Shown piece after piece: positions 49,789 to 51,927 of a stretch of DNA of 64,000 bases. The stretch lies in NCBI RefSeq assembly GCF_003334815.1, contig NZ_QOWO01000003.1; one strand, given 5' to 3'. Position 1 is the stretch's first letter. Every line of letters starts with the position of its first letter. Origin of the DNA: Escherichia coli. Its GTDB lineage: Bacteria > Pseudomonadota > Gammaproteobacteria > Enterobacterales > Enterobacteriaceae. A model generated the notes under the pieces. It saw only the letters and a program-made list of their open reading frames with translations. It ran no database searches and was not told the DNA's origin. A program made the position numbers and the translations under genes.

Positions 49789-50130
49789 TGCGATGTATCT
49801 CGCGATTTTTTTTTGTAACTTTTCCATCTTTTGCTTTTCTCTCCGAGCCGCTTTCCATATCTGCAATCGCATAAAAAACTCTGCTGGCGTTCACAAATGT
49901 GCAGGGGTAAAACGGGGGCACGCTTTGAACGGTGAGTATGAGTGAGGTCGGCTAACTTCCAGCAAGTGGCTATGAACAGCAAAATGGTGGTCGGGTTTGC
50001 TTGTTCTTACCGTTCAAGCCTTGCAACCGCTGAGAATAATGATGGTGGAATAGAGAGTTTATTTATCGCGGGCATAAAAAAACCCTTACTAACCGAAGCC
50101 CGGCGTTCAGGGTTATTGCGCTAGAAGAAC

Positions 50131-50661
50131 TTATTTATTCTTTGCGCGCTCGAAGGAAGCAACGATTTCAGCTTTAGCGGCTTCTGCGTTTTCCCAACCT
50201 TCAACTTTCACCCACTTGCCTTTTTCGAGGTCTTTGTAGTGCTCGAAGAAGTGAGCGATCTGCGCTTTCAGCAGCTCTGGCAGATCGTTAACGTCTTTAA
50301 TGTGATCGTATTCTTTGCTCAGCTTTGTGTGCGGAACAGCAATCAGTTTCGCATCTTCACCGGCTTCGTCGGTCATTTTCAGAACGCCAACCGGACGGCA
50401 ACGGATCACAGAACCCGGCTGCAGCGGGTACGGAGTCGGGACCAGTACGTCAACCGGGTCACCGTCCAGAGACAGGGTGTGGTTGATGTAACCGTAGTTG
50501 CACGGATAGAACATCGCGGTGGACATGAAGCGGTCAACGAACAGTGCGCCGCTCTCTTTGTCGATTTCGTATTTGATCGGATCTGCGTTAGCCGGGATCT
50601 CAATAACAACGTAGATGTCTTCCGGCAGATCTTTACCCGCAGGGACGTTGAGTAAGCTCAT
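50131..50661 (-). CDS. ppa: inorganic pyrophosphatase
   Basis: 176 aa. Confidence 0.95.
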
Positions 50662-50970
50662 GTCTGTTTCCTTTAAAAATATGTGGCAAACAAGTGCCGA
50701 GTATTATAGCCAACTCGCGCCGAATGTCTTCGCTTGTTTTCGTCTTCATTTTCCTTTTTCGCCAATTTTAAGACGGTATACAGAGCAGGAAAATCCATAA
50801 CCGTAGCCGCATTTTTCATAGTGAGATGAAAGCGATTACAAACTTGTGATTAACGTTTTATTTACTTCTTTGAAGTGTGATGTAACGCAATCCGTTACAT
50901 AACGAATTGTCTATAGTTTTTTCGCGAACATCTTTTCACCAATAATAATTACCCCGACGAGGACAACCCT

Positions 50971-51927
50971 ATGTGGAAACGCTTACTTGTAGTCTCTGCA
51001 GTCTCGGCAGCCATGTCGTCTATGGCGTTGGCCGCTCCATTAACCGTAGGATTTTCGCAGGTCGGATCGGAATCTGGCTGGCGCGCCGCAGAAACCAATG
51101 TGGCGAAAAGTGAGGCCGAAAAACGCGGAATTACGCTGAAAATTGCCGATGGTCAGCAAAAGCAGGAAAACCAGATTAAAGCGGTACGTTCCTTCGTCGC
51201 GCAAGGGGTGGATGCGATCTTTATCGCTCCGGTGGTTGCGACTGGTTGGGAACCGGTATTAAAAGAGGCGAAAGATGCCGAAATCCCGGTCTTCTTGCTC
51301 GATCGTTCTATTGATGTGAAAGACAAATCTCTCTATATGACCACCGTCACTGCCGACAACATTCTCGAAGGCAAGTTGATTGGTGACTGGCTGGTAAAAG
51401 AAGTGAATGGCAAACCATGCAACGTGGTGGAGCTGCAGGGCACTGTTGGGGCCAGCGTCGCCATTGACCGTAAGAAAGGCTTTGCCGAAGCCATTAAGAA
51501 TGCGCCAAATATCAAAATTATCCGCTCGCAGTCAGGTGACTTCACCCGCAGTAAAGGCAAAGAAGTCATGGAGAGCTTTATCAAAGCGGAAAACAACGGC
51601 AAAAACATCTGCATGGTTTACGCCCATAACGACGACATGGTGATTGGTGCAATTCAGGCAATTAAAGAAGCGGGCCTGAAACCAGGCAAAGATATTCTGA
51701 CAGGTTCTATCGACGGCGTACCGGATATCTACAAAGCGATGATTGATGGCGAAGCGAACGCCAGTGTTGAACTGACGCCGAATATGGCAGGTCCCGCCTT
51801 CGACGCGCTGGAGAAATACAAAAAAGACGGCACCATGCCTGAAAAGCTGACGCTGACCAAATCCACCCTTTATCTGCCTGATACCGCAAAAGAAGAGTTA
51901 GAGAAGAAGAAAAATATGGGGTATTGA
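50971..51927 (+). CDS. ytfQ: periplasmic galactofuranose-binding protein (ABC transporter)
   Basis: 318 aa, signal peptide, periplasmic sugar-binding fold. Confidence 0.9.
   Translation: MWKRLLVVSAVSAAMSSMALAAPLTVGFSQVGSESGWRAAETNVAKSEAEKRGITLKIADGQQKQENQIKAVRSFVAQGVDAIFIAPVVATGWEPVLKEAKDAEIPVFLLDRSIDVKDKSLYMTTVTADNILEGKLIGDWLVKEVNGKPCNVVELQGTVGASVAIDRKKGFAEAIKNAPNIKIIRSQSGDFTRSKGKEVMESFIKAENNGKNICMVYAHNDDMVIGAIQAIKEAGLKPGKDILTGSIDGVPDIYKAMIDGEANASVELTPNMAGPAFDALEKYKKDGTMPEKLTLTKSTLYLPDTAKEELEKKKNMGY

Follow-up and report, generated by a model that had tools for sequence, protein, structure and literature searches.

The short ytfP-ppa gap of an Escherichia coli strain is very probably an old scar of the chpS-chpB toxin-antitoxin operon

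The ytfP-ppa gap holds no working toxin-antitoxin module

In the window analysed here, a 64-kb stretch (64,000 nucleotides) of the Escherichia coli contig NZ_QOWO01000003.1, the convergent genes ytfP and ppa are separated by 379 bp from stop codon to stop codon (49752-50130; Table 1). The corresponding gap of K-12 MG1655 measures 886 bp, with chpS and chpB both encoded within it on the plus strand, which confirms the statement of an earlier note on this DNA that the ChpS/ChpB pair sits between ytfP and ppa in K-12. The same note had counted a gap of about 380 bp from the ytfP terminator; this figure fits the stop-to-stop distance, but only ~345 bp remain when the count starts at the end of the terminator hairpin. 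The short gap is a true feature of the locus, since an identical 379-bp gap is found in many complete genomes. The GC content of positions 49789-50074 is 45.8%, compared with 51.5% for the 64-kb window.

Four open reading frames of at least 50 aa (56-82 aa), two per strand, lie in the gap, and not two on opposite strands as had been described; a scan of all four against NCBIfam matched no family. None of them is a conserved ORF; the 60-aa ORF at 49942-50124 is out of frame with chpB and is interrupted in the UTI89-type allele described below, which has 1 nt inserted. The gap contains no intact ORF for a PemK/MazF-family toxin of ~116 aa and no AbrB/MazE-type antitoxin gene placed upstream of, and overlapping, a toxin start. 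A tblastn search of the locus with ChpS and ChpB gave no match at E<=1e-3. When ChpS was searched against the entire 64-kb window, the best matches had E values of at least 0.18 with sensitive settings and at least 2 with default settings, and none fell within the gap. With no toxin or antitoxin ORF, no NCBIfam family and chpS deleted, the view that this strain has no functional ChpS/ChpB module stands: the locus is unable to work as a toxin-antitoxin system.

The segment that covers the ytfP terminator (49752-49815) folds with z=-4.9, and the terminator hairpin is kept in all genera examined. On the ppa side, the hairpin at ~50083-50115 is presumed from its U-run and its position to be the ppa terminator.

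Table 1 Features of the ytfP-ppa locus in the 64-kb window
Feature	Position	Strand	Description
tamB	45628-49407		Upstream of ytfP
ytfP, left boundary gene	49410-49751	+	113-aa ORF; 100% identical to K-12 YtfP; annotated in matching genomes
ytfP intrinsic terminator hairpin	49762-49781	+, readable on both strands	Terminator scan
Second small hairpin with T-run	49789-49804		After the ytfP terminator hairpin
Distal ytfP-chpS spacer, retained	49789-49914	+	Homologous to K-12 L001:1275-1398
Left deletion junction	49915-49923		9 nt filler GGGGCACGC, source not assignable
chpB pseudogene remnant	49924-50048	+	chpB nt 19-145 (codons 7-49)
Right deletion junction TGGTGG	50043-50048	+	From chpB sequence and alignment
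Last 5 nt of chpB	50049-50053	+	AATAG here, AATAA in K-12; chpB nt 347-351
chpB-ppa spacer	50054-50130	-	93% identical to K-12 counterpart
Presumed ppa terminator	~50083-50115	- (reading)	Hairpin, then U7; z-score unremarkable
ppa, right boundary gene	50131-50661	-	176-aa ORF; annotated ppa in matching genomes
ytfQ	50971-51927		Beyond ppa

Part of chpB is retained between two deletion junctions

Comparison of the 379-bp gap with the K-12 gap by blastn with sensitive settings returned three collinear matches on the same strand. The first (query 11-163, 87%) corresponds to the spacer upstream of chpS and the second (query 292-379, 93%) to the spacer downstream of chpB. The third lies between them and aligns window positions 49958-50022 with chpB nt 54-119 (65 bp, 80%, E=5e-10). 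Against chpB of other Escherichia the match widens to 49924-50022 and chpB nt 19-119 (102 bp, 76-77%, best E=1.4e-12). At the protein level, the only tblastn match of ChpB below 0.01 in the whole 64-kb window falls at this same place; it covers residues 15-42 with E=0.002 and includes an internal stop. A second haplotype of the locus, which we call UTI89-type and which is present in UTI89, ATCC 25922 and strains bearing esiB, has one extra base and keeps the reading frame. Its translation, PASGYEQQNGGRV*LVLTVQAFQLLKIIIV, is 60% identical to ChpB 19-48 (E=2e-5). This match shows that the homology extends to chpB nt 145.

The remnant has the position and orientation of the intact gene, on the plus strand between ytfP and ppa, and both spacers that flank it are homologous to those of K-12. 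Its lesions comprise two large deletions, substitutions, frameshifts and an in-frame stop. The earlier note had left open that the residual sequence could hold a scar, which is what we find, as about a third of the toxin gene survives in degraded form, comprising chpB nt 19-145 and the stop region; its other suggestion, that the strain never acquired the module, is refuted by the degraded chpB at 49924-50048. Aligning the interval to K-12 and searching it with ChpB and ChpS thus upheld the expectation of a longer K-12 gap and overturned the expectation that no degraded chpSB sequence would be found.

In a global alignment, the left deletion removes 312 bp of the K-12 sequence (L001:1399-1710), comprising the palindrome GAGTTATACTTTGTATAACT, the Shine-Dalgarno sequence, the entire chpS gene and chpB nt 1-18 (codons 1-6). 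We searched this junction by eye for microhomology, and none of the candidates (GGTAAA, CCGTGAG/CGGGGAG) reproduces the observed junction. The 20-nt palindrome lies just upstream of the chpS ribosome-binding site (K-12 L001:1414-1433) and is invariant in all 11 aligned chpSB-bearing loci, which represent six genera; the remainder of the spacer shows no such conservation. Neither the window nor the E. albertii rows of the alignment contain the palindrome. Given its position and invariance, we presume that it serves as the operator of ChpS/ChpB and overlaps the -10 element. The spacer that survives to the left of the junction (49789-49914) is 87% identical to K-12 and, up to 49914, 100% identical to the chpSB-positive strain 2000-3039; its conservation is confined to Escherichia.

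The right junction consists of a single TGGTGG. In intact chpB this hexamer is a direct repeat (nt 140-145 and 341-346), and the 201 bp (67 codons) between the copies are missing in the window. The presence of TGGTGG at both ends of the missing segment in the intact gene indicates that the 201 bp were lost at the direct repeat, and we infer that slippage or recombination between the two copies produced the deletion.

Intact chpS-chpB occupies the same site in other species and genera

A scan for YtfP in one genome per species yielded 80 loci. Besides E. coli, chpS-chpB fills the ytfP-ppa gap in four more Escherichia species and in five other enterobacterial genera (a Lelliottia, Enterobacter asburiae, isolate RIT691, two Pseudocitrobacter and a Kluyvera); in the loci that carry the module chpS starts 210-215 bp past the ytfP stop. 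Within Escherichia the identity of chpS/chpB to K-12 is 90.6-94.6%, close to that of tamB (91.8-94.7%); in comparisons with Enterobacter and Kluyvera the values are 69-77% for chpS/chpB and 81% for tamB. The divergence of chpSB tracks that of tamB and ytfQ, as vertical inheritance predicts.

Degraded copies were also seen elsewhere. Citrobacter sedlakii (L027:4430-4562) retains an independent remnant that corresponds to ChpB residues 63-107 (E ~2e-5), and in Enterobacter cloacae DSM 26481 (L032:6100-6168) a fragment matching ChpS residues 9-31 adjoins ppa (E ~2e-5), which points to separate decay events in other genera. These sequence comparisons are most simply read as showing that chpSB has long resided at the site, has been inherited vertically and has been lost repeatedly.

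These data bear on the possibility that the site was ancestrally empty, that the lineage of the window never had chpSB and that K-12-like strains gained the module by insertion. Such a history would suit the many enterobacterial species in which ytfP and ppa are only 100-170 bp apart with no chpSB, and the general observation that toxin-antitoxin modules are often horizontally acquired (reviewed in PMC7167474). It is refuted by the chpB-derived sequence in the window; moreover, the spacer upstream of chpS has been kept and matches a chpSB-positive strain perfectly up to the breakpoint, and across species and genera the divergence of intact chpSB keeps pace with that of its flanking genes. We therefore consider an ancestrally empty site highly improbable.

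Other genes were observed in the ytfP-ppa gap of several relatives: a TonB-dependent receptor with a YncE-like propeller protein in several Citrobacter, Hcp-domain fusion proteins in Citrobacter youngae and Salmonella arizonae, a methyl-accepting chemotaxis protein in Silvania and three ORFs without a family in Enterobacter cloacae (gap cargo at L010:4510-7675, L015:4603-5730, L016:4734-6227, L040:4382-5965 and L032:4389-5711). The site looks like an integration hotspot. Separately, some 10 kb upstream, the K-12 annotation places ytfI between cysQ and ytfJ (L092:1708-2646); in ST131 and UTI89 (L090, L091) cysQ abuts ytfJ and no ytfI is annotated.

The scar and the intact operon are alternative alleles in E. 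coli

We surveyed 5426 complete E. coli genomes, in all of which the flanks were matched. The short allele was present over at least 80% of its length in 2321 genomes, and the 141-bp core of the scar (49915-50055) in 2322 (~43%). Genomes with intact chpSB, defined by a match to K-12 chpS-chpB DNA, numbered 3100 (57%). Core and chpSB occurred together in one genome only, HH45, and five genomes had neither, so that the scar and intact states are essentially mutually exclusive. The scar falls into two main haplotypes: in 1634 genomes the core shares at least 95% identity with the window, and in 687 the value is 90-95%. The 2322 scar-bearing genomes come from animals, humans and the environment.

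Among named strains, the scar is carried by BL21(DE3), UTI89, ATCC 25922, CFT073, Nissle 1917 and an O121 strain, and intact chpSB by K-12, O157:H7, an O111 strain and an ST131 strain. We take K-12 and BL21(DE3) to belong to phylogroup A, and ST131 and UTI89 to phylogroup B2. With regard to the survey across phylogroups proposed earlier, both alleles occur within the presumed groups A and B2, and absence of the module is not phylogroup-specific, as judged from a few named strains. In ST131, chpSB is 99.8% identical to K-12; paeA, msrA, tamA and the last third of tamB are likewise nearer to K-12 than to UTI89, and ytfJ is nearer to UTI89. A K-12-like chpSB with K-12-like flanks next to a UTI89-like ytfJ suggests an imported tract.

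The exceptional genome HH45 (NZ_CP116411.1) has flanks and a right junction of the window type, together with a chpB nt 19-119 segment that is 100% K-12-like; in place of the 9-nt filler it has ~135 bp of G/C-rich, junk-like sequence (L089:1870-2005, 2010-2110). PGAP annotates a partial PemK/MazF pseudogene at this locus. Either an intact allele has converted the scar in HH45, or its sequence carries an assembly or polishing artefact. In plasmid records, K-12-type chpS-chpB DNA matches three places, and a query with the gap sequence also finds three plasmid places.

A further gene, esiB, which encodes a secretory-IgA-binding protein (c5321 of CFT073) and is present in CFT073, Nissle 1917 and ATCC 25922, occupies the locus in 188 of the 5426 genomes (3.5%), leaving ~39% with the scar and neither esiB nor chpSB. 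In GN02323 (L088:9252-10724), esiB begins just past the ytfP terminator; a second terminator-like copy and the UTI89-type scar come after it, in that order. As the same chpB remnant is found in alleles with esiB and in alleles with neither gene, the scar predates the insertion of esiB, and the locus would never have been empty in Escherichia.

The scar is probably old and diverges faster than its neighbours

The same two junctions were found in every short allele that we aligned, namely the window, three other E. coli allele types, the GTDB species representative SCPM-O-B-8794 and the E. albertii type strain. Two identical junctions in all of these indicate a single origin of the scar. Its identity between the window and E. 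albertii is 88%, compared with 96% for ytfP and ppa, 90.6% for tamB and 89.1% for ytfQ. Differences among E. coli amount to 7% in the scar and 0-4.7% in neighbouring genes, with only 0-2% in ytfP, in ppa and in the ppa-ytfQ spacer. The scar therefore diverges faster than its neighbours and is under relaxed constraint, and the 88% identity to E. albertii fits vertical descent since the species split combined with a lack of constraint.

Over nt 19-119 the remnant differs by 20-24% from each of the intact Escherichia chpB genes, and over its whole modelled length by ~30%. The scars of E. coli and E. albertii are 12% apart, less than the remnant is from intact chpB. This excess means that any dating would have to accommodate either a very old split or a burst of change at the time of the deletions.

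The perfect identity of the left flank to a chpSB-positive strain up to the breakpoint is what a recent deletion would leave, private to this strain or clone and arising as a laboratory or lineage-specific loss from a K-12-like locus. To such an origin we give virtually no credence: it is refuted by the occurrence of the same architecture in 2322 genomes and in E. albertii, with haplogroups ~7% apart, and the remnant differs by 20-24% from the intact gene.

The scar hairpin resembles inherited baggage

In every intact Escherichia chpB, nt 19-116 (K-12 L001:1711-1808) fold into a hairpin of ~100 nt (z -3.3 to -5.3), which is absent in Lelliottia, Enterobacter, Kluyvera, Pseudocitrobacter and RIT691 (z +1.0 to -2.1). 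We know of no description of a hairpin in the 5' third of chpB; as a model, it might tune translation of the toxin in Escherichia. The window retains this structure on the plus strand at 49924-50019, with a predicted energy of -46.4 kcal/mol and z=-3.6; none of 200 shuffled sequences was as stable. It contains many G-U pairs, and its minus-strand counterpart is far less stable. Elsewhere the scar hairpin has z=-2.2 in the UTI89-type allele and z=-0.5 in E. albertii, where the basal stem has two uncompensated changes.

These features raise the alternative that the fragment was kept by selection, with the ~100-nt plus-strand hairpin RNA acting, for example, as a small RNA or a stabiliser, or insulating the convergent ytfP and ppa transcripts from each other. 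Besides the stability, G-U content and strand bias of the window allele and the restriction of the hairpin to intact chpB of Escherichia, two observations favour it: the left deletion ends exactly at the base of the hairpin, and ~250 bp of apparently useless DNA have persisted since before the E. albertii split. The coincidence of the left remnant edge with the hairpin base could be a hint of selection or of a structure-dependent mechanism. A broader coincidence, of the entire remnant with the hairpin, was dropped, as the UTI89-type allele extends the homology up to chpB nt 145, where it stops at a TGGTGG repeat; the remnant thus extends 28 nt beyond the hairpin, to a plain direct-repeat junction.

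Neutral decay was simulated by introducing into the K-12 hairpin as many changes as were observed, namely 21 substitutions and 4 indel positions. The mutated hairpin equalled or bettered the observed energy in 6% of trials, and in 11-15% when the changed positions were fixed, so that selection on the scar hairpin was not significant in any of three simulations (p=0.06-0.15). The structure has also decayed in E. albertii, and the scar as a whole diverges faster than its neighbours. A scan of 49300-51100 against Rfam 15 at a permissive E gave no match in the gap; the one hit in this segment, a chance S15-leader match scoring 16.8 bits where the gathering threshold is 39.5 (E=0.61), falls within the 3' end of ppa. 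A promoter scan of the gap found no promoter-like site. The possibility raised in the earlier note that the residual sequence holds a small RNA is thus not borne out, and we regard preservation of the fragment by selection as improbable. From the simulations and the stem changes in E. albertii, we take the scar hairpin to be inherited baggage.

Discussion

The interval between ytfP and ppa is very probably a non-functional scar of a former chpS-chpB operon, an old allele that was shortened by deletions, has drifted and segregates against the intact allele. In the history that we favour, two deletions in an ancestral Escherichia lineage would have destroyed the module. One of ~312 bp would have taken the operator/promoter palindrome, all of chpS and codons 1-6 of chpB, and one of 201 bp between the TGGTGG repeats would have left chpB nt 19-145 and the stop region. 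Having neither promoter nor start codon, and bearing frameshifts and a stop codon, the leftover fragment would then have drifted as neutral DNA. The scar allele probably predates the split of E. coli and E. albertii; in E. coli it segregates against the intact allele (~43% and 57% of complete genomes) and may be carried from lineage to lineage when the core genes on either side undergo homologous recombination.

A more elaborate possibility is that the chpSB/scar polymorphism is trans-species, predates the split of E. coli and E. albertii and is maintained at 57:43 by balancing or frequency-dependent selection and not by drift and recombination, and/or that the Escherichia-specific hairpin is a functional RNA element. 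We consider this rather unlikely; if it were true, such selection might, for instance, act because ChpB is advantageous in some niches but costly to keep.

Absence of chpSB is an ordinary and largely known polymorphism, whose presence/absence pattern was already published in 2013. According to Pastorello et al. 2013 (mBio, PMC3735183), the ytfP-ppa locus exists in three states, with chpBS (53%), with esiB (15%) or with neither (32%) among 47 complete genomes, and esiB is flanked by direct repeats; our counts agree with theirs. Variable presence of chpB/chpS has also been recorded in pan-genome studies (PMC6096937, PMC5422975), in one of which it is linked with healthcare-associated bacteraemia (PMC6096937). 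In the literature we reached, we found no description of the anatomy of the scar or of the chpB pseudogene.

The 'absence' of chpSB in ~43% of E. coli is thus a fixed old allele and no peculiarity of a strain, and it gives no sign of a recent arrival of the module. Scoring the presence or absence of chpB/chpS amounts to scoring two old haplotypes of one locus. As these haplotypes travel with flanking core genes by recombination, associations with chpB/chpS may reflect linkage and not the function of ChpB. The picture fits the view of toxin-antitoxin modules as slowly eroding selfish passengers, and the decay of chromosomal toxin-antitoxin systems at conserved sites is an established idea (PMC7167474).

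Three known systems place the locus in context. The type II ChpS-ChpB (ChpBI-ChpBK) module of K-12, a member of the MazEF/PemIK family, represents the ancestor of the window sequence: the remnant shares its position, strand and downstream spacer, but has neither antitoxin gene, operator nor start codon, and 219 of the 351 nt of the toxin gene are missing. The three-state locus of Pastorello et al. is the same locus with the same polymorphism, and the window corresponds to its 'neither' state; in the accessible text of that paper this third state is given as the absence of both genes, whereas here a chpB remnant is present. Finally, ccdO157, whose decay in E. coli was described by Mine et al. 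2009 (Genetics), is, in the account available to us through PMC7167474, like chpSB a chromosomal type II module at a fixed intergenic site that is intact or degraded depending on the strain. Its lesions are deletions or nonsense mutations and have been read, in that account, as the slow neutral loss of a selfish module. The ccdO157 cases as so described represent many independent lesions, whereas chpSB in E. coli presents one old scar allele, held in common with E. albertii.
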